From Patescibacteria group bacterium (GTDB taxonomy: Bacteria > Patescibacteriota > Minisyncoccia > UBA6257 > 2-01-FULL-56-20), in contig JAGXBC010000003.1 in the NCBI GenBank assembly GCA_018971305.1, positions 92,325-156,324 of the forward strand: a stretch of DNA of 64,000 nucleotides, given 5' to 3'. Made by a program: the position numbers and the translations under genes. Shown here piece after piece: positions 3,245 through 41,709 of the stretch. The notes beneath the pieces were generated by a model. The model had not been told where the DNA came from, searched no databases, and saw only the letters and a program-made list of their open reading frames with translations. Position 1 is the first letter of the stretch. Each line of letters starts with the position of its first letter.

Positions 3245-5437
3245 ATGCCCCATTTTCTAAAAAAACTTGAGTTAAACGGTTTTAAATCATTTGCCGGGAA
3301 AACCACACTGGAATTCCCCGCGGGAATCACTGCGATCGTTGGTCCGAACGGCAGCGGCAAGTCCAACGTCGTGGATTCTATCCGTTGGCTTTTGGGCGAG
3401 CGAGATGCCAAAAATCTTCGCGGAGCGAAAGTTGAGGACTTGATTTTCGCCGGTACGGCAAAGAAAGCTAGGATGGGGCAGGCGCAGGCCAGCTTGCACT
3501 TTGAGAACGCCAATAATTTTTTCCCGGTGGACTTTTCCGAGGTTTCCGTGATGCGCGAGATACGCCGCGACGGCACAAGCCGTTATTTTTTGAATAAGGC
3601 GGAAATTCTACTCCGCGACCTCGTTGATTTTTTTGCCAAAGCGCGTCTTGGTTCGCGCGGACTTATTGTCATTACGCAAGGCAATAGCGACGTTTTTATT
3701 CAGGCCTCGCCCATGGCGCGAAGGGAAATGGTGGAAGAAATTCTCGGGCTTAGAGAATATCAGCTCAAAAAAAGCGACGCCGAGAGGCGGCTTAAGAACA
3801 GCCAGATAAATTTGGACAAAGCTCGGGCGCTTACTGAGGAAATATTGCCACACCTGCGTTCCTTAAAGCGGCAAACTTCCCGTTGGGAAAAACGCGGCTC
3901 GTTGGAAGAAGAGCTGAAAGGCCTGGAGAATATATTTTTCGGAACTCAATTCAAAGATATAAAGGAAAAACTCGGAGAGATCCAAAAAAGAATGAATGCG
4001 GAACGCGGTGAATTTGCCGTTCTGGAAAAAGAAAAAAAGTCTGCGGAAGTAAGGCAGGCGGAGGTGGAATCCAGCCAGCCGGAAGAAAGAAAAGATTTGG
4101 AAAAAATAAAAGCCCAAACCCAGCAATTATTGGAGAAAAAAAGCGTTTTACAAAAAGAGCTGGGTCGCATTGAGGGGCAAATGGAAATGGTGGAGAAGGC
4201 CGCAGTTTCCTCTCCCCAGGCTCATTCCACGGCAAAATTATTGGCCGTGCTTAAAAATATAAAAACGATTTTGGAAACGGGACTCAGGGGCGATATGGTG
4301 GAAATGCAAGAAGCGATAAGGAGTGCCACCGAAGAAATAGAAGATATTTTGTCCGATAGGGGCAAGGATTTACCTGGTAAGACGGCTCCCGATGCCGGCT
4401 TGAAGCCCCAGTTTGAAAAAATCAACCGCGACTTAAAATCTTTGGAGGTGGATATTTTGGACCTCAAGGCCAAAGAACAATTATTAGAGAAGAATCAGGA
4501 ACAATTTTATCATTCCTTTAAGGCGGCCGTGGCTGGAGTTGAAGCAGCTAAAGACAAGATAGAAAAATGGGAGGCGAAGAACAGAGAAATATTATTTGAA
4601 AAGGAACGTCTCACAATGCGCCTGGAAGAAACTGCGCGCCAAGCGGTACAAGCGGGAAGAAAACCGGAAGAATTTAATGGTATTGATGTGTCTGGCGCAA
4701 ATGCCAATGAGGACGCGTCTCAAATGGAAAGAAAGATTTTTAAACTCAGGGGTGATCTGGCGAGCATCGGCGAAATAGACGAGGCCTTAATGAAAGAGGC
4801 GCGCGATACGGAGACAAGATACGAATTTCTTAAGAAAGAATCGGAAGATTTAGATAAGGCAGTTAGAGATCTGCGTGTTCTTATAAAAGACCTGAACGAA
4901 AAGATCTCCATAGAATTTGAAACGGCGCTTGTAAAAATTAACGAAGAATTCGGAAAATTTTTTGAGACGATGTTCAGCGGCGGACACGCAAGATTAAAAA
5001 TAGTTAAAAAAGAAGCGCGGAGTATCGTAGAGGACGATCTCGGAGATTCTAACGAGGGATTGCCGGATGTGGTAAAAATTGACGAAGAAGCTGCTGAAGA
5101 TGACGGTGGCATTGAAATAGAGCTGCACCTGCCGCGTAAAAAGATAAATTCCTTAGAAATGCTTTCCGGAGGTGAAAGGAGTTTAGTGGGCATCGCGGCA
5201 CTTTTTGCTCTTATTTCTGTAAGCCCGCCACCATTTTTGGTTTTAGATGAGATTGATGCGGCTCTTGATGAACGCAATGCCCGGCGGTTCGCGGAGATGC
5301 TTAAGACCTTTGCCAAAAAAACCCAATTCGTGGTTGTTACCCATAATCGCGCCACCATGGAAGCCGCCGACGTTCTTTATGGCGTGACTCTGAACGAAGA
5401 CGGCACTTCAAAGATACTATCGCTTAAGCTCGGATAG
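3245..5437 (+). CDS. smc: SMC-family chromosome segregation ATPase (short form, 730 aa)
   Basis: N-terminal Walker A GPNGSGKSN, long coiled coil, and C-terminal signature LSGGERSLVGIA followed by Walker B LVLDEIDAALD. Confidence 0.75.
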   Translation: MPHFLKKLELNGFKSFAGKTTLEFPAGITAIVGPNGSGKSNVVDSIRWLLGERDAKNLRGAKVEDLIFAGTAKKARMGQAQASLHFENANNFFPVDFSEVSVMREIRRDGTSRYFLNKAEILLRDLVDFFAKARLGSRGLIVITQGNSDVFIQASPMARREMVEEILGLREYQLKKSDAERRLKNSQINLDKARALTEEILPHLRSLKRQTSRWEKRGSLEEELKGLENIFFGTQFKDIKEKLGEIQKRMNAERGEFAVLEKEKKSAEVRQAEVESSQPEERKDLEKIKAQTQQLLEKKSVLQKELGRIEGQMEMVEKAAVSSPQAHSTAKLLAVLKNIKTILETGLRGDMVEMQEAIRSATEEIEDILSDRGKDLPGKTAPDAGLKPQFEKINRDLKSLEVDILDLKAKEQLLEKNQEQFYHSFKAAVAGVEAAKDKIEKWEAKNREILFEKERLTMRLEETARQAVQAGRKPEEFNGIDVSGANANEDASQMERKIFKLRGDLASIGEIDEALMKEARDTETRYEFLKKESEDLDKAVRDLRVLIKDLNEKISIEFETALVKINEEFGKFFETMFSGGHARLKIVKKEARSIVEDDLGDSNEGLPDVVKIDEEAAEDDGGIEIELHLPRKKINSLEMLSGGERSLVGIAALFALISVSPPPFLVLDEIDAALDERNARRFAEMLKTFAKKTQFVVVTHNRATMEAADVLYGVTLNEDGTSKILSLKLG

Positions 5438-28372: not shown

Positions 28373-29890
28373 TTAAAACAATTTTGATACAGGCTTAGCG
28401 TTGCTTATCATTTTTTTTGCTATCTCTATGTAGTCGGGGTTAATTTCAAAACCTATATATGATTGTCCTAATTCCCTTGCCGCGGCGCATTCTGAGCCGC
28501 TACCCACGAATGGCACCAGAACCACAGCGTTTTTTGGGGGCATAGCCGATTTAATCAATTTTGCAGATAGTTCAAATGGTTTTTGTGTGGGATGTTTGAT
28601 TATCTCGTGACCATCGTGTTTTTTCAATTGTCGTGGCTCAAAAACACCATTACATTTTTTGCATAAAAACCACCTCTCAACCATTCCGGCTCCACCAGCT
28701 AGAGCGGGGATCTTTATTACGTCCCTTGGTAGTGCGCCACCCTCGTGTGCCTTATAAACTGTTTCTAATCCGCCCTTACTAAATCTACCAATAGTACCTT
28801 TTCTTACTTTTCCGGCAGCTCCATTTAAAAATCCTTCCGTATATGGTTCTCTAACCTCATCCTTATTAAAAATCGGTTTATTTTTCCAGGCACAAATAAT
28901 TGCCTCATGACTTCTCTGCCAGAAATTTAACGATGCAACATTTTTGTTTGTGTAGTGCCAAATTAGCCAGCGTTTATTTATAGGAATTTCAACGGAAAGG
29001 TGTGCCAGAATTTCACTAAAACCATAAATAAACATAGTTCCAGTTGGCTTCATTGCTCTAATGGATTCGTTAATCCATTCCTTACACCACGCGATATATT
29101 CGTTTATTTCTCGCTTATCAATGTTATTGCCAAAGTCCTTGCCGATATTATAAGGAGGATCGATAACGACAACATCGCAACTTTCATCCGGAAGTTTTTT
29201 AAGTTCGGCTATCGCATCTCCCAATATAATTTTATTAAGTGGTAGGGTTTTATTTCTTTTTATGATAGATGTCGTTATCTCTTCGGCCCGCAACCCCTCC
29301 TCATTTTGAATAACGTCAATAACAACACCCTGGATTTTAATATCCCTATCTTTTTTAATAATAATCGGCTCATAGGCGCTATTTGCCGGTTCTAATCTAA
29401 TTTGCCCCCGCTCCTTATAGAATTTTTTAAGAGTTGCTTCGTGGTTGTCAATTAAAGCAACCACGCGTTGGCCATTTTCGGCGACTCCCTGCTGTTTTAC
29501 CAACACAATATCACCATCTTTAATATTTTCATCAATCATACTGTTGCCGGACACTCGCAAAGCAAAAAACTCTCCAGAGCGAGGGAGCTTGTTTTGAGAG
29601 ATGGCAACAGCCTCTCTTTCTTCGATCGCCTCAATTGGTTGACCAGCGGCGATGGTGCCGAGTAGAGGGATTTGGATAAGTTTTTCGGTTTTAGAAACTT
29701 CAATGCCGCGTTGTTTATTCTGTTCTTTTCGTAAATAACCACCATCCTTAAGATTTTGCAGGTGTTCGTGGATTGTTCCAACTGAACGTTTAAAGTGTTT
29801 TGCAAGTTCTGGAATAGAAGGGGAGTAGCCGTGTTTTTTGGAATAAGTTTTTATAAAATCCAGGAGCCCCTTTTGCTTTTTAGTAATCAT
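28373..29890 (-). CDS. fusion protein: a complete LexA-like repressor (wHTH plus S24 autopeptidase) joined N-terminally to a beta-class N6A/N4C DNA methyltransferase
   Basis: Residues 1-200 align across full-length LexA (LLGTIAAGQPIEA hinge, catalytic Ser in VSGNSM, Lys in ATLKKF). Residues ~215-505 have MTase motif IV DPPYN, HPTQKP, and motif I FVGSGSE in the IV-then-I order. Confidence 0.8.
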   Translation of the reverse strand: MITKKQKGLLDFIKTYSKKHGYSPSIPELAKHFKRSVGTIHEHLQNLKDGGYLRKEQNKQRGIEVSKTEKLIQIPLLGTIAAGQPIEAIEEREAVAISQNKLPRSGEFFALRVSGNSMIDENIKDGDIVLVKQQGVAENGQRVVALIDNHEATLKKFYKERGQIRLEPANSAYEPIIIKKDRDIKIQGVVIDVIQNEEGLRAEEITTSIIKRNKTLPLNKIILGDAIAELKKLPDESCDVVVIDPPYNIGKDFGNNIDKREINEYIAWCKEWINESIRAMKPTGTMFIYGFSEILAHLSVEIPINKRWLIWHYTNKNVASLNFWQRSHEAIICAWKNKPIFNKDEVREPYTEGFLNGAAGKVRKGTIGRFSKGGLETVYKAHEGGALPRDVIKIPALAGGAGMVERWFLCKKCNGVFEPRQLKKHDGHEIIKHPTQKPFELSAKLIKSAMPPKNAVVLVPFVGSGSECAAARELGQSYIGFEINPDYIEIAKKMISNAKPVSKLF

Positions 29891-32724: not shown

Positions 32725-34008
32725 ATGTCATACAGAGAGTTTCTGCGGATACTTTGGAGGTCAGCGATTGTAGCATTGATTATCTATTTCATCTTTCTTT
32801 TGCTGCGAAACGCTGGCTCTTCCCACAGCACGATTAATCAGGATAGTCAGATATATTACTATGCCGACTTTCTTTTTGTGGACGACCCTCCGCCGTTGGA
32901 TGACAAACAGAGCGACAGTGAAAAAGAATTTCACTCGTTCGTTTTCTTCCTGAGAGACGTTAGCCAAAATGAGCACCCCTTGCACAGAATAGATTTCTTA
33001 AAAAACTTAACCGATGACTACCGTTCGGAGGTAAAAACATTTCAGGAAAAGACCGGAAACAATCCGGAGCTTATGTACACATTGCTCTTCGATAAATCGA
33101 AGATCATTGACCTTATTCTGCGAGAGGAAAAGGAAAGGGATAGAAGAATCGCATCTTTACGTCCCGCGCCGAGTTTGGTCTACGTATTCTTCTTTTTTCA
33201 GGTCATAAGTATCGGTTGGCTGATTCTATGGTGGGCCACTGTCGGAAGCTGGAATGTTTTCCGCTTTCCTTATCGAGCGTGGTGGTTCTACGTTTACTTG
33301 GCCTTCATGCTCCCGTGTTCACTTGCCTTGATAGCATCGGTCGCATGCGGCGAGCTTGTTTTCTTTGTTATCCACATGATAGAGGCCAAACGAGATAGAT
33401 TCCGCACTGGGCTTAAAAAGCTGGCAGTCCGTCTCAAAATTGTAAGAGAATACGACGATTTGTGCGCTAATATCAATAAAAATCGCGCCAAGCACAAGGA
33501 TGCCTGGATTAGTTCCTTTGGTAGTAAACGAATATCCGTCAAGATTACACAAGAGAACGTTGTTCTTGAAGAACTTGGCAGGAATCTTCGCGCCAGGGAA
33601 AAGGAATTGCAAACGATGCAGCGCGACTATTTTGCGAAGAGGGAATTTATCAAACGCCTAAAAAAAATTCCGAATATGACCGAGCGGCTGGCAGAGGAAT
33701 TTGACGAACTGTCCCGCAATCCATTAGTGAAAGCGCTTGAGGTGAAAGACGATTGCCTGGTGGTCTACACAGACGCTATTTTTGGGAGCAGGGGAACCGT
33801 TGGACCTTTCCGTATAGACATTTCACCTACCGAAAGCACAAAAAGGGTGTCCTTTGCGGCTAAGTGGTCGAGGAAACATCCCACCGGAGACGGAACAGAC
33901 GGTCCTTACTGTTTCGGTAATGCGAACGAATTGATTGATAAACTACTTGAAGAATATCGCATTGCCGAGGGAGTTGGCCTGATGTTGAAAGCATTCCAAT
34001 CCAATTAA
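32725..34008 (+). CDS. membrane-anchored coiled-coil protein with a C-terminal E2/UBC-like domain (candidate Ubl-conjugating enzyme)
   Basis: N-terminal TM helix, two or three further TM helices at ~140-215, a coiled coil at ~220-330, and a C-terminal ~100 aa with FRIDISPTESTKRVSF...HPTGDGTDGPYCFGNANELIDKLL that resembles the E2 HPN...C motif. Confidence 0.5.
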   Translation: MSYREFLRILWRSAIVALIIYFIFLLLRNAGSSHSTINQDSQIYYYADFLFVDDPPPLDDKQSDSEKEFHSFVFFLRDVSQNEHPLHRIDFLKNLTDDYRSEVKTFQEKTGNNPELMYTLLFDKSKIIDLILREEKERDRRIASLRPAPSLVYVFFFFQVISIGWLILWWATVGSWNVFRFPYRAWWFYVYLAFMLPCSLALIASVACGELVFFVIHMIEAKRDRFRTGLKKLAVRLKIVREYDDLCANINKNRAKHKDAWISSFGSKRISVKITQENVVLEELGRNLRAREKELQTMQRDYFAKREFIKRLKKIPNMTERLAEEFDELSRNPLVKALEVKDDCLVVYTDAIFGSRGTVGPFRIDISPTESTKRVSFAAKWSRKHPTGDGTDGPYCFGNANELIDKLLEEYRIAEGVGLMLKAFQSN

Positions 34009-34019
34009 AGGAGGATAAA

Positions 34020-34673
34020 ATGCATAAAAGAAATATCCCGCTGTGCCTACCATTAAAAACGTTGAGTCCGGAAGCGGCCTTGATATCCTATCCGAATGCA
34101 ATACGACTGCTACCCAAGCTTGTCTTGGCGAGTGATGTGTTCCGGCAACTTTCCTGCTATTACCGTTCGATACGATGCGAATTCCAACTGATGGGATTCG
34201 TGGAGCGCGAAGATGAGAACGTTTTTCGCGTGACAGAACTCGCAATCAATCCTCAATACGTGGGAATAACCCATGCCGATAACGACACGCTGATGTTTTC
34301 TGATTTTCTCCGAGAACTTGAGTTACGGGGAAAAGATATCGGCAATCTGCGTCTGCAGGCTCATTCACACGGTATGCTGGAATCGTATTTTTCCTGCAGA
34401 GACGTGGATACGATCTGTGATTCTTACGCTTGCGACTGGATGATCTCGATGGTGGGGAACATCCGGCTTGATTTGAAGGCGCGGCTAGATATATTCGAGC
34501 CCGTGCCGTTAAGCATTTCATTGCCAATATTCGTGGAGTCTTCTTTGTCGGAAATTAATGCCCCAGTTGTTTCCGTGGAAGAAAAGAGTGCCGAAGAAGC
34601 TGCATGGCTTATGCAGCTGCTGAAACAGATGAGGCCAGGTATGGAAGTAGCGGGGGAGGTGTTCCATGGCTGA
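34020..34673 (+). CDS. JAB/JAMM (MPN+) metalloprotease
   Basis: Exact JAMM motif HSHGMLESYFSCRD (HxHx7Sx2D) with an upstream Glu (CEFQLMGFVE). Strong RBS aaggagga. Confidence 0.7.
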   Translation: MHKRNIPLCLPLKTLSPEAALISYPNAIRLLPKLVLASDVFRQLSCYYRSIRCEFQLMGFVEREDENVFRVTELAINPQYVGITHADNDTLMFSDFLRELELRGKDIGNLRLQAHSHGMLESYFSCRDVDTICDSYACDWMISMVGNIRLDLKARLDIFEPVPLSISLPIFVESSLSEINAPVVSVEEKSAEEAAWLMQLLKQMRPGMEVAGEVFHG

Positions 34674-35364
34674 TTTTCTAAGACAGCTAGATATCATTGA
34701 TCCAAAGAAATTGGTATATCCCGTAACTTGTATCGGATTGGGCGGTATCGGAAGTTTTACGGCAGCAGCTCTTCGCAAGATCGGTTTCCAAAAATTCATT
34801 CTCTATGATGGTGATGTGGTGGAGGCCCATAACATACCTTCGCAAAATTTTCCGTGGGAAAGCGAGGGCTCAACCAAGGTTTCCGCGACAGAGAAAGTGT
34901 TGCGTGAATCACTGGACTCCGAAGTGGAGATTACCGCCTATGATCGCAGGTTTACCGAAAATGACCATCTTGAAGGAATTGTCGTTGCCGGTGTGGACAG
35001 TATGTCTTCACGGCAGGCAATCTGGAAAGCCGTGCAAAACAACCGAGCGCTTGTCCCGCTTTTCTTAGACGGCCGCATCGGGGTTGAGTGGGACGAAAAA
35101 GAGCGCAAGGTCAAAGGAGAATGGATAGAGGTTTTTAGTTTGAACCCTTCATCGTTTTCCGACATTGAGCTTTACGAGTCGCATCTTTTCCCCGAAGAAG
35201 AAGCCGCCGCTCTGCATTGTACTGCGCAGGCGGTGATCTACATCGGCTACTTCATTGCGGCGTTCATAAGCTCAAGCATTCGCAAGTGGGCTTGTGGCGA
35301 AGAGATTCATCGCTATTTGCTTTATGACGCTTTGACTTCTGACATAATCAGTGCTATAAAGTAA
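34666..35364 (+). CDS. E1-like ThiF/MoeB-family adenylyltransferase (Ubl-activating enzyme)
   Basis: Rossmann GLGGIGS, DGDVVEAHNIPSQNF, the D...R...DGRIG adenylation motifs, and a candidate catalytic Cys in LHCTAQ. The start overlaps the JAB stop by 8 bp. Confidence 0.8.
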   Translation: MADFLRQLDIIDPKKLVYPVTCIGLGGIGSFTAAALRKIGFQKFILYDGDVVEAHNIPSQNFPWESEGSTKVSATEKVLRESLDSEVEITAYDRRFTENDHLEGIVVAGVDSMSSRQAIWKAVQNNRALVPLFLDGRIGVEWDEKERKVKGEWIEVFSLNPSSFSDIELYESHLFPEEEAAALHCTAQAVIYIGYFIAAFISSSIRKWACGEEIHRYLLYDALTSDIISAIK

Positions 35365-35409
35365 CAGACTCCAGGTAGTAAAATTTCGGAAAAAAAAGGG
35401 GGTGATACT

Positions 35410-35622
35410 ATGGTGCACGTAAGATCCGCAGGTGTTTCCGAGGATCTCCCGTTCCGTGAGGGTATGACCGCTCAGGACGCCTTAAGAGAAGCTGGCGTTC
35501 GGAAAGGTCTCTTCCAAGCCAACCCACAGATCTTGGTTGGCCCGGATGTCGCCAATGGGGCGCAACTCCTCAAGGACGAAGACACGGTGACCGTGTCTCC
35601 AAAGATCAAAAATGGCGGCTAA
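35410..35622 (+). CDS. ubiquitin-like beta-grasp protein (ThiS/MoaD-like) ending in Gly-Gly
   Basis: 70 aa, with the C-terminal VTVSPKIKNGG-stop like ThiS/MoaD/ubiquitin tails. RBS gggggtga. Higher GC than its surroundings. Confidence 0.65.
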   Translation: MVHVRSAGVSEDLPFREGMTAQDALREAGVRKGLFQANPQILVGPDVANGAQLLKDEDTVTVSPKIKNGG

Positions 35623-35791
35623 AGCCGCCCAACAATGGATGGGGGAAGAACGCACAAAGCGATTTGACCCCCATCCTAATTTTTTTTATATTCCCTCACT
35701 TCCGTCCGTAGACCGGTAAACCAACCTGTACCCGAACCGCCGAAAGGAAAATTCCGGCTGGCAGTCCGAGGGCGATTCGGGGCGTATCGTT

Positions 35792-36250
35792 CTACAACTT
35801 TCCCTTCTTTTCGTATTTGTGATCTTCGTTGTATTTTTCCAGGACCGTTTTGATGCTTTGGAGATGGGCTTCAACCCGGTGTAATTTAAATCTAAGCATT
35901 TCCTCCCTGTGTTTTGCGGATATCCTTGTGGTTGTTTTTAAAAATTGGGCATACCAGCCCCTCTCTTTGTCCAGAAGCGCTTCTTCTTTATAAAAACCCC
36001 ACGCCGAAGACGCCCACTCCGGTAGGTTGTTAATGTCTTCCTCGCGCGCGGTCAGTTCCTGAAGGAGATTTCTGATATTCTCCTCTATTTTATCCGTATC
36101 CTCCTCTTTTTTCTCCAGTTCAATAAGTTGTATTTGTTCCGGTTCGGATTTTTCCTGATTTTTTCCTGATTCTGTCATCGGTTTGATTATAGCAAAAAAT
36201 CGCGCTTTGACAGACTCTCTAAAGGGATTAAGATGATGACATGAAATCAT
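35792..36250 (-). CDS. coiled-coil hypothetical protein
   Basis: Glu/Lys-rich heptad pattern, convergent with the Ubl gene. Confidence 0.3.
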   Translation of the reverse strand: MISCHHLNPFRESVKARFFAIIKPMTESGKNQEKSEPEQIQLIELEKKEEDTDKIEENIRNLLQELTAREEDINNLPEWASSAWGFYKEEALLDKERGWYAQFLKTTTRISAKHREEMLRFKLHRVEAHLQSIKTVLEKYNEDHKYEKKGKL

Positions 36251-37444: not shown

Positions 37445-38371
37445 ATGAAAAAATTAACTATTGTAATCATAGCGGTAGTGGTTGTCGTTATTGGAGCAGG
37501 CATATACTTTTTTTTGCCGAGACCCGCAACCAACACTAATGTAACCCAGAATCCTCCTGTAACCAATACTCCAGGGAATACCGTTCAAACTCCGGAGAAT
37601 ACTCAGCCGCAGCCAACGCAGCAAAATCCTGCGGAAACAGTTATCGGAAAATCAGTTGAGGGGCGCGATATCACGGCGTATAACTATGGTACTGGTGATA
37701 CGCAGATCTTGTTTATCGGCGGCATACATGGCGGCTACGAATGGAACACGAGCCTTGTTGCTTATCAGGCGATGGACTATCTGAAGGCGAATGCCAATGC
37801 CATTCCTGCTAACGAAAAAATAACCGTTATACCGGTGTTGAATCCGGACGGCCTGAACAAGGTTGTCGGGACGGCAGGACGCTTTGCCGCCGCGGACGTT
37901 CCGGCTTCGCAAACTTTGCAAATATCCGGACGCTATAACGCGGATAACGTTGACCTCAACCGCAACTTTGATTGCGATTGGCAAAAGAACGCTGTCTGGC
38001 AGAACACAGCCGTGAGCGGCGGCAGTAAAGCATTTTCCGAACCGGAAAGCGCGGCGATACGGGATTACATAACGGCGCATAAGCCGGCAGCGGTTGTTGT
38101 TTGGTACAGCGCGGTTGGCGGCGTGTTCGCGTCCAATTGCCACGGCGGAGTTTTGCCCGAAACGAACACGATTACGAATATTTATTCAAAAGCATCCGGT
38201 TACAAGGCATACGAGAGCTATGATTTCTACGCGCTGACCGGCGATATGGTCAATTGGTTCGCCAAGAACAATATTCCGGGCATTAGCGTTCTTCTTACCA
38301 CGCACACCGATACGGAGTGGAGTAAAAATCAAGCAGGCATTGACGCTCTTATAGCCCACTACGCTAAATAA
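37445..38371 (+). CDS. secreted M14-family zinc carboxypeptidase
   Basis: HGGYEWNTSL (the HxxE zinc site), NPDG, and NRNFD motifs, with a signal anchor. Confidence 0.7.
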   Translation: MKKLTIVIIAVVVVVIGAGIYFFLPRPATNTNVTQNPPVTNTPGNTVQTPENTQPQPTQQNPAETVIGKSVEGRDITAYNYGTGDTQILFIGGIHGGYEWNTSLVAYQAMDYLKANANAIPANEKITVIPVLNPDGLNKVVGTAGRFAAADVPASQTLQISGRYNADNVDLNRNFDCDWQKNAVWQNTAVSGGSKAFSEPESAAIRDYITAHKPAAVVVWYSAVGGVFASNCHGGVLPETNTITNIYSKASGYKAYESYDFYALTGDMVNWFAKNNIPGISVLLTTHTDTEWSKNQAGIDALIAHYAK

Positions 38372-38397
38372 ATAACTTTTAGCGAGATAATCGAACT

Positions 38398-39321
38398 ATG
38401 AAGTCCTTTTTTACGGGGCGGATGATAACAGCCCTTATTATTGTTGCCGTGTTCGGCGTCAGCCTGCTTATTTTTTATTCTTTACAGAATAAAAGTGAGC
38501 CGCCTGCGCCTTCCGAACCGGCGGTTGCTACTTTCACAATAAGGCACGTAATTATCGGTTCGTCCGTGGAAGGGCGGCCTATTGAGGCGTTCACGTACCT
38601 GCCGAGTTCCGAGCCGGATACGTTTAACCCATTGAAGAGCGGAAGCGGTAAGACGAATCTCTTGTTTGTCGGCGGCATGCACGGCGGTTACGAATGGAAC
38701 AGCGTGCTTTTGGCCTACCAGGTTATGGATTACCTTAATACCAACCCCGAAATAATTCCCGCGAATCTGACCGTTACCGTGATTCCGGACTTGAACCCCG
38801 ACGGAGTTTTTAAAATTATCGGCAAAGAGGGGAGGTTTAGCGTCGCGGACGTTCCAATCGGCGTACCGGAAGCGCCTGGACGGGTAAACGCCCACGAAGT
38901 AGACCTTAATCGCAATTTTGATTGCAACTGGCAGCCCAATGGCGTCTGGCAGGGGAAGACGGTTAGTGCCGGTACAGCGCCGTTCTCCGAGCCGGAGTCC
39001 GCCGCTTTAAGAGATTTTATTTTGAAAAATAATTTTGCCGCCGCAGTTTTTTGGCACAGCCAGGCGAATGCCGTCTACGCCTCGGAATGCAATAACGGAA
39101 TCCTTCCGCAAACCTTGGAAATTATGAACGCCTATTCGCGGGCGTCCGGCTACCAGGCAGTAAGATCTTTTAATGCTTATAAGGTTACCGGCGATTCCGA
39201 AGGATGGCTCGCTTCCATCGGCATTCCGGCAATAACAGTAGAGATGAGCACTCACGAAACCATTGAGTGGGATAAGAACCTGGCCGGCGTTAAGGCGCTA
39301 CTGGATTATTACAGGCGTTGA
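38398..39321 (+). CDS. secreted M14-family zinc carboxypeptidase (tandem paralog)
   Basis: Same HGGYEWNS, NPDG and NRNFD motifs. About 45-50% identical to the upstream paralog by eye. Confidence 0.7.
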   Translation: MKSFFTGRMITALIIVAVFGVSLLIFYSLQNKSEPPAPSEPAVATFTIRHVIIGSSVEGRPIEAFTYLPSSEPDTFNPLKSGSGKTNLLFVGGMHGGYEWNSVLLAYQVMDYLNTNPEIIPANLTVTVIPDLNPDGVFKIIGKEGRFSVADVPIGVPEAPGRVNAHEVDLNRNFDCNWQPNGVWQGKTVSAGTAPFSEPESAALRDFILKNNFAAAVFWHSQANAVYASECNNGILPQTLEIMNAYSRASGYQAVRSFNAYKVTGDSEGWLASIGIPAITVEMSTHETIEWDKNLAGVKALLDYYRR

Positions 39322-40530: not shown

Positions 40531-41709
40531 CTATTGTATCGTTTTAATCTGTGTTTCAGGCGGTGTGGTCGCCGTAAATACTTCAAAGTTCAAGCGGCCA
40601 ATAACCCTGCCGTCAGGAGTTTCCACGTTTACCCGCCAGGAGCCGTCATCAAGACCTGATATGTTTGAATACGTTCTGTATCCTCCGGTTCGGCCTCCGA
40701 CAACCGGAAGGATAATACTCCCTCGCGTTTCCCAGGCGCTGCTTGTCGCGTTGTAATATTGCCAAACATGCACGATGTCGGTATTCAGTGCCGTTGGAGA
40801 GAAAACCGCCGTATAGGCGTAAAGAGTTTCGCCTGATGTTACATGAACAGTTGCCTCGGTTTTTAAAAACTCTGTTGCTTGGGAAAGAAAATCTTTAGTG
40901 TCGGTGTTCTCATAGGTTACTGTATAGTTTCCAGGACCGTTAACGATGAGCGAGTTATAAATACCGGCATCTTCAAGCGAGAGAGGCAGCGGGGGGATAA
41001 GCTTCAAAAAATAAAGAGAGTTTACGGCAATAAATATCCCGCCGACAGAAATAATTACAAGCCACTTGTGTCTACCGACGAGCTTTTCTCTGCGGAAGAT
41101 TCTTGGTATCAGGGCGATTATTCTTATGATAGCCAAGCTAACCGCGCCGCTTAAAATAAATACTAAGGTCCCGATTCTGTGCAAGAGTATCGGCATAAGA
41201 TAAATGGCAAAAGCGTAATAGGCGAGGAAGAGGAGCGAAAATTGGAAGGCCGTTCTCGCGTAACTGCGCTTTAGCGATTCGTTGGCGATGAAAGCGGCGG
41301 CCAAGAGGAGCAGGAACGGCCAGCTTGTTGCGAAGGTACCGCTGCGGAAATAAAAAACGAGATAAGTGGAGAGTATGCCGCCGAAAAAGAATTGGATTAT
41401 GTTCACGAGCCAGAAGTGAAGTCTGTTCGGGTCCGCGGCCTCATACACCCCCTTTTTACCGGTACCGTCGTTCAGAATATTTATCCAAATGGCGCAGACG
41501 GTCACAATAGCCAGATGGCCGATAACCCATAGATTGTCCCAGTATAAGTCCACGCGCTTCAGAGTAACGGCATCAAAAACGAAACCGCCGACCAGAGAAA
41601 TAGAGGAGATCGGCCGCTCAAATTGTGCGTACCAGCTTTTTACACGAGTAAAAATAGTGTATTTCCCCGGAGCTGGGTATGTTCCGTAATCATGTTTTTG
41701 GTGAGCCAT
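40531..41709 (-). CDS. polytopic membrane protein with a C-terminal extracytoplasmic domain, unknown function
   Basis: About eight TM helices. Confidence 0.4.
   Translation of the reverse strand: MAHQKHDYGTYPAPGKYTIFTRVKSWYAQFERPISSISLVGGFVFDAVTLKRVDLYWDNLWVIGHLAIVTVCAIWINILNDGTGKKGVYEAADPNRLHFWLVNIIQFFFGGILSTYLVFYFRSGTFATSWPFLLLLAAAFIANESLKRSYARTAFQFSLLFLAYYAFAIYLMPILLHRIGTLVFILSGAVSLAIIRIIALIPRIFRREKLVGRHKWLVIISVGGIFIAVNSLYFLKLIPPLPLSLEDAGIYNSLIVNGPGNYTVTYENTDTKDFLSQATEFLKTEATVHVTSGETLYAYTAVFSPTALNTDIVHVWQYYNATSSAWETRGSIILPVVGGRTGGYRTYSNISGLDDGSWRVNVETPDGRVIGRLNFEVFTATTPPETQIKTIQ

Follow-up and report, generated by a model that had tools for sequence, protein, structure and literature searches.

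Operons that place a ubiquitin-like protein (Ubl) beside its activating enzyme (E1), a conjugating enzyme (E2) and a JAB peptidase are a young field in prokaryotes; the Bil, Bub and CBASS (cyclic oligonucleotide-based antiphage signalling system) Cap2/Cap3 systems were characterised only in 2023–2025. Cap2 is an E1–E2 fusion that conjugates a CD-NTase, and the sampylation and TtuB/TtuC systems are not known to have an E2, their E1 also serving sulfur transfer. To our knowledge, Bil, Bub and CBASS Cap2/Cap3 were all found in defence contexts of well-studied phyla. The known bacterial families comprise Type II CBASS Cap2/Cap3, Bil types I and II, Bub types I and II and rows 6a–6e of Iyer et al. 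2006; Bil (BilABCD, bacterial ISG15-like) types I and II are rows 6d and 6c, respectively (Iyer, Burroughs and Aravind 2006). BilA has a conserved glycine and a short tail, whose trimming by BilC was proposed by the authors, and BilB has no classical histidine and a conserved histidine after its cysteine (PMC10557695). Bub works through Ser/Tyr oxyesters, has no catalytic cysteines and uses a DUF6527 protease (10.1101/2024.11.21.623953). Here we describe a four-gene cassette on a 64,000-nucleotide stretch (hereafter the window; contig JAGXBC010000003.1, positions 92,325 to 156,324) of a Patescibacteria metagenome-assembled genome (MAG). The genes encode a 427-aa E2-like protein, here called X (identical to the NCBI protein with locus tag KGJ89_02135), a JAB/JAMM peptidase, a minimal E1 and a Ubl. 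We read them as a self-contained Ubl conjugation cassette, with a probability of roughly 0.7.

The four open reading frames (ORFs) follow one another on the same strand in the order X–JAB–E1–Ubl (Table 1). X and JAB are 11 nt apart, the JAB stop and E1 start overlap by 8 bp (34666–34673), and 45 nt separate E1 from Ubl. A purine-rich motif resembling a Shine–Dalgarno sequence precedes every start codon, namely AGAGGAGA, AGGAGG, GGGAGGTG and AGGGGGTGA for X, JAB, E1 and Ubl, respectively. An earlier note, made from this DNA alone, had reported the four ORFs, a Shine–Dalgarno motif at each gene and the 8-bp overlap, and had called the set a ubiquitin-like conjugation operon; the layout was found as described, and the call held for each component (JAB, E1, Ubl and UBC domain). 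When the window proteins were scanned against Pfam, NCBIfam, PADLOC and PHROGs, E1 alone was recognised; JAB and Ubl stayed below threshold, and no profile in these libraries covered X.

The C-terminal domain of X is an E2-like domain. In an AlphaFold2 (AF2) model of the full-length protein (predicted local distance difference test (pLDDT) 85.4; predicted template modelling score (pTM) 0.44), this domain comprises a helix (318–331), a six-strand meander (335–377), a loop with the His-Pro (HP) dipeptide and the cysteine, and two further helices (398–409 and 413–426). Residues 312–427 modelled alone reached pLDDT 91.4 and pTM 0.85. The domain carries KHPTGDGTDGPYCFGN, with H392-P393 and then C396. 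An exhaustive HMMER search of a 1.84-billion-protein library yielded a family of 45 cluster representatives, most of them 400–450 aa long and matched through to the C-terminus; a word-index search with X returned only the query itself, and one with the E2-domain alignment (A2) gave nothing at E ≤ 0.001. T349, G360, C396 and G398 are invariant in an alignment of 41 sequences, in which HP at 392–393 is common. The cysteine is conserved in 41/41 of these homologs, in 77/83 homologs from genome loci and in 88/88 viral homologs, the last of which share a near-invariant HPH...C-x-G motif.

Profile comparisons place this domain among the UBC proteins. A profile (A9) of 52 members from viruses and from outside the candidate phyla radiation (CPR) matched UBE2L3 at E 8.3e-6 over 130 positions, with HP on the HPN motif and the family cysteine on UBE2L3 Cys86; UBE2D, UBE2N and other E2s followed at E 0.007–0.07. 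The Patescibacteria profile A2 matched UBE2L3 at E 0.15 only, yet in the same register. When the 52 members were scanned singly, Pfam UQ_con was the most frequent match (3/52, best E 0.0033, sub-threshold), and Prok-E2_B (E 0.11) and Prok-E2_D gave one weak match each. We conclude that the C-terminal domain of X, earlier proposed to be E2-like, is a true member of the UBC superfamily, and that the curated E2 families of prokaryotes are less close to it than classical E2s. Cys396 is predicted to carry the Ubl as a thioester.

Three hydrophobic segments lie in the N-terminal part of X, the first and second ~120 residues apart and the second and third joined by a short loop. This loop contains a conserved P..WW motif (consensus PxxxWW in the family alignment), and a K/R-rich stretch directly follows segment 3. 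The AF2 model shows an all-alpha region (64–143) and long helices at 199–252, 254–265 and 267–314. An N-terminal and further transmembrane helices and a long coiled coil had been expected of this protein, and they are matched by the three segments and by the long helices of residues 199–314, respectively. The three-segment membrane form is confined to Patescibacteria (Parcubacteria and Saccharibacteria); the X forms of NC10, Chloroflexota, other phyla and archaea are soluble, and 86/88 viral X proteins have no hydrophobic segments. The membrane tether is thus a Patescibacteria-specific variant of a wider, mostly soluble family. The K/R-rich stretch after segment 3, together with the cytoplasmic partner proteins, suggests that the E2 domain lies on the cytoplasmic side. 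Several loci carry 2–5 X paralogs beside a single E1/JAB/Ubl set, including the viral loci L088, L089, L128 and L131, and in several of these multi-X loci the N-terminal regions are far less alike than the UBC domains. Since the N-terminal part differs between clades and little of it is kept between some paralogs, we take it to be a module for both localisation and the choice of targets.

The window E1 matched Pfam ThiF at E 4e-14 (52.7 bits, cut-off 28.1). Our E1 profile matched ThiF (1.8e-16), UBA5 (1.6e-15), the adenylation domains of Uba1, UBA3, UBA6 and UBA7 (to ~1e-14) and BubCD (5e-8), and hhalign aligned it with E. coli ThiF over 172 columns at 98.3% probability, placing C185 on ThiF C184. 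ThiF Cys184 forms an acyl-disulfide with ThiS. Among 51 homologs, Q7, G24, G26, G27, I28, G29, S30, G40, D48, N56, Q60, K71, D111, R116, R137 and C185 are invariant, and the Rossmann-type nucleotide-binding glycine motif corresponds to G24xGGxG29. The cassette E1 has no zinc CxxC site, nothing in it corresponding to the zinc ligands C169 and C172 of ThiF, nor does it have an inactive adenylation domain, a separate Cys domain, a rhodanese domain or any other extra domain. The PADLOC Cap2 'E1-E2' models and the NCBIfam ThiF/MoeB models matched only its Rossmann part, far below their cut-offs. To judge from these alignments, the E1 is a minimal single-domain enzyme whose adenylation site is intact and which keeps a cysteine where ThiF has C184, in line with the minimal ThiF/MoeB-type E1 proposed at the outset.

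In the JAB alignment (39 sequences), E54, H115, S116, H117, S125, D128 and N147 are invariant and make up the full JAMM motif; the HxHx7Sx2D signature noticed earlier is exact, with E54 upstream of it. The JAB profile matched a Caldiarchaeum Rpn11-like protein (2.7e-9), Rpn11/PSMD14 (~2e-8), PfJAMM1 (7.6e-7), AMSH and CSN5, and BilC at E 0.71 only. As a single sequence, the window JAB scored E 0.07 against Pfam Prok-JAB, below threshold. Its predicted tasks are trimming of the Ubl at its C-terminus and deconjugation. A separate observation concerns Saccharibacteria, where a 'GG' occurs in the 30 C-terminal residues of 17/28 JABs (...LKGGRQ and ...GKGGEA are examples) versus 78/487 neighbouring ORFs. 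Examples are the genes at 3317–3877 of L079, 5435–5986 of L083 and 2660–3292 of L067; the window JAB is without such a tail. These GG tails may mimic a Ubl C-terminus.

The Ubl profile (52 homologs) matched PF1061 (3e-11) and P. furiosus SAMP2 (4e-11), followed by MoaD, ThiS, SAMP1/2 and TtuB, which marks the Ubl as a predicted beta-grasp protein of the ThiS/MoaD/SAMP type. The earlier note had made its reading depend on conservation of the 70-aa ORF, and 81 homologs adjoin E1 genes. The terminal glycine is kept in at least 90% of members, and the family C-terminus reads ...P-[KR]-[IV]-x-[NG]-G, with NG in Patescibacteria and GG in NC10 and Chloroflexota. Most Ubl ORFs end at the conserved glycine, others run on for 1–2 residues and a few for up to 18, the tail being non-conserved; viral Ubls end in GG, AG or KG, usually with 1–2 residues after. 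Since the closest orthologs of the window Ubl stop at ...KIKNG, G69 is the conserved glycine and G70 most simply a one-residue tail that would probably be trimmed. The beta-grasp Ubl ending in Gly-Gly therefore stood in part: the protein is SAMP2/ThiS-like and does end in ...KIKNGG, but the family glycine is G69 and G70 is extra.

The nearest relatives of the Ubl and JAB are SAMP2 and PfJAMM1, a pair that needs no E2. Conjugation might accordingly proceed without an E2, as in sampylation or the TtuB system, the UBC-like domain of X being a non-catalytic RWD/UEV-type adaptor that recruits machinery or targets to the membrane. The six genome-locus X proteins without the cysteine fit such an adaptor, as do loci in which Cys-containing and Cys-less paralogs are mixed; at L047 (Uhrbacteria), three E2-like paralogs lie beside one E1/JAB/Ubl set and 2/3 are without the cysteine. 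The adaptor reading is nevertheless unlikely in our view: the cysteine falls on the UBE2L3 catalytic cysteine in two independent profile alignments, with HP on HPN, and its conservation at 41/41, 77/83 and 88/88 is unexpected for a residue with no catalytic role.

We sought further cassettes with the E1 alignment (A3), scanning one genome per species, and scored the cassette genes by our own hidden Markov models on six-frame ORFs. The scan returned 80 loci, from Parcubacteria groups, Saccharibacteria (~27), Methylomirabilota (NC10; ~25), Chloroflexota, Rubrobacter and Nitrospinae, from a few proteobacterial MAGs and from two archaea (Woesearchaeota and Aenigmatarchaeota). The order X–JAB–E1–Ubl was seen in ~50 of these loci, a few had a permuted order, and some genomes carried two cassettes. 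The NC10 loci have X–E1–Ubl without JAB (the JAB-less NC10/Methylomirabilota loci, with X–E1–Ubl only, are L009–L024, L031, L036, L040, L042, L050 and L062). In all, ~75 species-level genomes, those of NC10 included, carry the cassette as a recurring unit, its gene order either unchanged or permuted. In Ryanbacteria and further Parcubacteria, E1 homologs taken from the protein database likewise lie within the four-gene set, and the flanks differ.

Gene neighbourhoods of the cellular loci gave little beyond the cassette itself. Flanking genes are not kept beyond close relatives, and all-against-all clustering of flanking ORFs found no fifth conserved gene (E3, effector or target) beyond clade-specific synteny. 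Among 138 immediate neighbours of ~70 cassettes, 146 Pfam families were found, and the 25 most recurrent were listed: the flanks are housekeeping genes, with no phage or integrase family among those 25.

The viral loci have a different gene context. Against IMG/VR, the E1 alignment gave 294 matching stretches on viral contigs, some of the contigs reaching 190 kb, and the best 80 loci were examined. All four genes were present in 57 of these 80, in the orders X–JAB–E1–Ubl, Ubl–X–JAB–E1 and Ubl–X–E1–JAB, and the flanks were enriched in PHROGs for SbcC/SbcD-like nucleases, primase/helicase, DnaB-like helicases, exonucleases, clamp loader, ParB-like proteins and methyltransferases. Taken with the recurrence in cellular genomes, this count puts the association of the gene set far beyond chance. 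Relatives of the E1 also occur in FpV4-like Flavobacterium phages and crAss-like phages (crAss001, cr85_1 and DAC15), whose E1 shares 23–30% identity, is annotated 'thiamine biosynthesis protein' and matched our E1 profile at E ~1e-43. In these phages a long JAB (366–423 aa) lies directly upstream of E1 in a replication module, beside primase and uracil-DNA glycosylase genes (FpV4, L168, 3674–5606; cr85_1, L169, 3760–5648). In FpV4 and cr85_1, neither an E2 nor a Ubl was picked up by our own profiles, and tblastn of a viral E2 domain against GenBank phages gave no match.

This viral occurrence bears on whether a prophage or another mobile element carries the copy in the window as cargo, so that the system serves that element, through host takeover, counter-defence or replication control, with its chromosomal presence incidental. 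The full cassettes beside viral replication genes point that way, as do the JAB–E1 pair of the cultured crAss-like and FpV4-like phages, the Parcubacteria E1s whose nearest relative is a viral E1, and the AT-rich stretch with small unknown ORFs and a LexA–methylase fusion just upstream of the window cassette. The window E1, however, is up to 61% identical to Parcubacteria E1s, at most 39% to the rest and at most 38% to viral E1s. E1 nearest neighbours fall mostly within their own group, with some mixing of viral and cellular sequences, and the cellular clades are internally coherent. The three-segment anchor is absent from the great majority of viral homologs, the cellular flanks are of housekeeping type, and no integrase or structural phage gene was noticed beside the window cassette in general scans. 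We consider the cargo reading improbable for this copy.

A sulfur carrier of the ThiS–ThiF, MoaD–MoeB or CysO–Mec–CysM type was weighed in the same way. The Ubl would then be a thiocarboxylate donor and the JAB would mature it, with X unrelated or a scaffold. By sequence, Ubl and E1 are closest to ThiS/MoaD and ThiF, Cys185 falls on ThiF Cys184, and JAB genes paired with sulfur carriers are known (Mec+/CysO, rows 4a–4e of Iyer et al. 2006; PMC1779556). The earlier note had named CysM, MoaE or ThiG-like partners as the sign of such a system; no ThiG, MoaE, PALP/CysM or sulfate-assimilation family is among the 25 most recurrent neighbour families. A rhodanese domain is missing from the E1, whose constant partner is an E2-fold protein that keeps its cysteine. 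The cassette is also found within replication modules of phages, and SAMP2, the best Ubl match, is a protein modifier. We rejected the sulfur-carrier reading on gene context and regard it as very improbable.

Several observations weigh against a conjugation cassette. Within X, the HP dipeptide is variable in genome-locus homologs (H 55/83, P 60/83), 6/83 of these are without the cysteine, and the asparagine of the classical HPN motif is replaced (by T in the window protein and H in most members). The window X alone matches no E2 profile in Pfam, NCBIfam or PADLOC, and Foldseek of the E2 model against the PDB gave no significant match (best E 0.13), with E2s dominating the list. The membrane segments are three, an odd number, and hydropathy and charge counts did not settle the topology of X. 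The NC10 cassettes are without JAB, yet many of their Ubls carry 1–2 residues after the conserved GG. As to context, no typical defence gene or defence island is among the 25 most recurrent cellular neighbour families, and PADLOC finds no known defence system on the window proteins. The viral status of the viral loci rests on IMG/VR classification and replication-type flanks, and no structural phage genes were seen there.

Ubl conjugation remains our preferred reading, and homology suggests how it might proceed. The JAMM peptidase would remove residues after the conserved Ubl glycine, here probably G70, exposing G69. The E1, presumably a homodimer, would adenylate the exposed glycine with ATP and then probably hold the Ubl as a thioester on Cys185, the counterpart of ThiF Cys184. 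From there the Ubl would be handed to Cys396 in the UBC-fold domain of X, which would transfer it to target amino groups with no separate E3, the variable N-terminal part of X picking the location and targets. In Patescibacteria, the anchor, all-alpha region and stalk would place conjugation at the cytoplasmic face of the membrane. The JAMM peptidase may also reverse conjugation.

The biological role is the least certain point. Our best guess, and the most likely role, is phage–host conflict or infection-related control of proteins, because the cassette occurs on hundreds of predicted phage or mobile-element genomes, in a patchy set of phyla and with multiple E2 paralogs. The Patescibacteria version would be a chromosomal, membrane-directed derivative. 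Gene context does not support a role in antiviral defence. A more far-reaching reading, which we offer tentatively, is that X represents a new lineage of classical-type (HP-x...Cys) UBC E2s shared by phages and by bacterial and archaeal phyla, working with a minimal ThiF-size E1, an Rpn11-like JAMM and a SAMP-like Ubl, and rebuilt in Patescibacteria as a membrane-embedded E2 that tags membrane- or envelope-associated targets. These targets could be proteins of the host–symbiont or phage-entry interface or, conceivably, an amine-bearing lipid, by analogy with Atg8 lipidation.

The immediate surroundings of the cassette were also inspected. Its G+C content (0.470) lies at the 84th percentile of equal-size windows (0.449 for the whole window; standard deviation 0.025 among windows of that size). 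Higher G+C had been taken earlier as pointing to horizontal acquisition; the cassette is no outlier, and its composition is therefore not evidence of recent acquisition. The visible contrast arises because an AT-rich stretch (27.6–32.7 kb, G+C 0.386) with many small unknown ORFs adjoins it upstream. Within that stretch, a 505-aa ORF on the minus strand (28373–29890) encodes a complete LexA (LexA_DNA_bind and Peptidase_S24) fused to an N6/N4 DNA methyltransferase, an unusual fusion. The convergent gene at 35792–36250, suggested as a possible associate, was rejected as a partner, since none of the other cassettes has a relative of it nearby. A perfect G+C-rich hairpin, GGCGGC-TAAA-GCCGCC (35614–35629), covers the last Ubl codons and the stop; it may serve as terminator of the convergent gene, because a T-run comes after the hairpin on the minus strand. 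Downstream of the cassette, at a distance of 1.8 kb, come two tandem paralogous M14 zinc carboxypeptidase-like genes (37445–39321), whose products both begin with a membrane or signal segment. A DUF2914 protein is encoded near the cassette both in the window (40531–41709, minus strand) and directly downstream in the Ryanbacteria locus L001 (7080–8201), a proximity that is probably residual synteny.

Table 1 Features of the cassette in window coordinates. KD, Kyte–Doolittle hydropathy over a 19-residue window.
Feature	Position	Strand	Basis
X (E2-like), 427 aa	32725–34008	+	ORF; 45 cluster representatives; full-length AF2 model pLDDT 85.4
X hydrophobic segment 1, aa 9–27	32749–32805	+	KD 2.49; in most Patescibacteria homologs
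X hydrophobic segments 2 and 3, aa 150–168 and 198–216	33172–33372	+	KD 2.16 and 2.29
X long helical, coiled-coil-like stalk, aa 217–314	33373–33666	+	AF2 helices
X UBC/E2-like domain, aa 318–427	33676–34005	+	AF2 model, profile matches
X Cys396 codon, predicted thioester-forming cysteine	33910–33912	+	Conservation; aligns with UBE2L3 Cys86
JAB/JAMM (MPN+) metalloprotease, 217 aa	34020–34673	+	ORF; invariant JAMM motif
JAMM zinc-site motif H115-S-H117-x7-S125-x2-D128	34362–34403	+	Sequence reading; invariant in family
Minimal ThiF/MoeB-type E1, 232 aa	34666–35364	+	ORF; Pfam ThiF
E1 Cys185 codon, candidate thioester cysteine	35218–35220	+	Invariant in 51 homologs; aligns with ThiF Cys184
Beta-grasp Ubl, ThiS/MoaD/SAMP type, 70 aa	35410–35622	+	ORF; profile matches
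Ubl G69 (family-conserved terminal Gly) and G70 (extra residue) codons	35614–35619	+	Alignment of 81 genome-locus Ubls

If confirmed, the cassette would join a SAMP/ThiS-like modifier and a ThiF-size E1 with a UBC domain of significant sequence similarity to eukaryotic E2s, a missing combination that bears on the origin of the E1–E2 relay from sulfur carriers. Phages themselves would then use Ubl conjugation, given its place beside replication genes on hundreds of predicted phage genomes, and a function would be suggested for the orphan 'ThiF' and 'metalloprotease' genes of crAss-like gut phages. The anchored version in the ultra-small, genome-reduced Patescibacteria would point to a function at the cell envelope, on which their life as episymbionts centres. 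Were the tentative membrane-E2 lineage real, it would be the first membrane-integral ubiquitin-like conjugation machine in bacteria and a candidate intermediate between sulfur-carrier/SAMP systems and the eukaryotic E1–E2 cascade. With only four small genes, the cassette is directly testable by reconstitution in Escherichia coli.

Among described systems, Bil is the most similar in gene complement. Both combine a Ubl, an E2, a JAB peptidase and an E1 in one operon with no E3, the E2 being thought to choose targets directly, and in both the Ubl has a conserved glycine with a short non-conserved tail. BilD, however, is a multidomain protein in which an inactive domain accompanies the active adenylation domain and the Cys domain is mobile, whereas the cassette E1 is a single 232-aa domain. 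The cassette E2 motif is classical-like, HP(x)...C-x-G-N, rather than that of BilB; the JAB profile scored E 0.71 against BilC and 2.7e-9 against the Rpn11-like protein; the Ubl is SAMP/ThiS-like, not ISG15- or ubiquitin-like; and the E2 is membrane-anchored in Patescibacteria. Prok-E2_B gave a single sub-threshold member match (1/52, E 0.11), and PADLOC gave no match to the E2, JAB or Ubl. We rejected membership in Bil: the complement fits, but the E1 is not multidomain like BilD, the E2 motif is not that of BilB, and the JAB is not closely similar to BilC.

Three further families were tried and rejected. In Type II CBASS, the Cap2 models match the Rossmann part only, E1 and E2 are separate genes here, and no CD-NTase is among the neighbours listed. 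Against Bub (6E/DUF6527), both cysteines are conserved in the cassette, and no DUF6527 is among the neighbour families listed or the window proteins. PRTRC_ThiF scored 30.4 bits (cut-off 144.75), with no match to a PRTRC partner model.

Sampylation (SAMP1/2, UbaA, HvJAMM1/PfJAMM1) and Thermus TtuB/TtuC share several parts with the cassette: its Ubl is nearest to SAMP2/PF1061 (~3e-11), its JAB matches PfJAMM1 (7.6e-7), and its E1 is of the compact ThiF/MoeB type. They differ in that the cassette has an obligatory UBC-fold partner with a conserved cysteine and no sulfur-pathway genes among its most recurrent neighbour families, and the NCBIfam SAMP-activating E1 model reached 20 bits against a cut-off of 450. 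With classical UBC E2s such as UBE2L3 (UbcH7), X shares the profile match at E 8.3e-6 and HP before the cysteine at classical spacing, and with the Caldiarchaeum E1/E2/Rpn11 system the cassette shares its JAB, which is closest to the Caldiarchaeum Rpn11-like protein. In contrast to classical E2s, X has the HPN asparagine replaced, and its UBC core is shortened, the active site being followed by just two helices. Long N-terminal regions, which in Patescibacteria anchor the protein in the membrane, are fused to this core, and Pfam UQ_con is not reached (best member E 0.0033, sub-threshold). X is paired with a ThiF-size E1 and a ThiS-like Ubl, and a RING E3 is absent. The JAB–'ThiF' pair of crAss-like and FpV4 phages resembles the cassette in its related E1, with JAB directly upstream, beside primase and uracil-DNA glycosylase, and differs in its longer JABs (366–423 aa) and in having no UBC-like protein or Ubl detected by our own profiles.

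The earlier note did not recognise this configuration among described ones, and the family is described in none of the profile libraries or papers searched here. Full-text literature searches brought up neither this configuration nor a Ubl system of any kind from Patescibacteria or Saccharibacteria; most subscription-journal papers lay outside that coverage, and an earlier mention is possible. Going by sequence similarity, the parts of the cassette are closest to SAMP2/JAMM1, Rpn11-like JAMMs, ThiF/UBA5 and classical UBC proteins. What sets it apart from the known systems is its classical-like UBC domain, its minimal E1, the Patescibacteria-specific anchor and its wide occurrence on predicted phage genomes.

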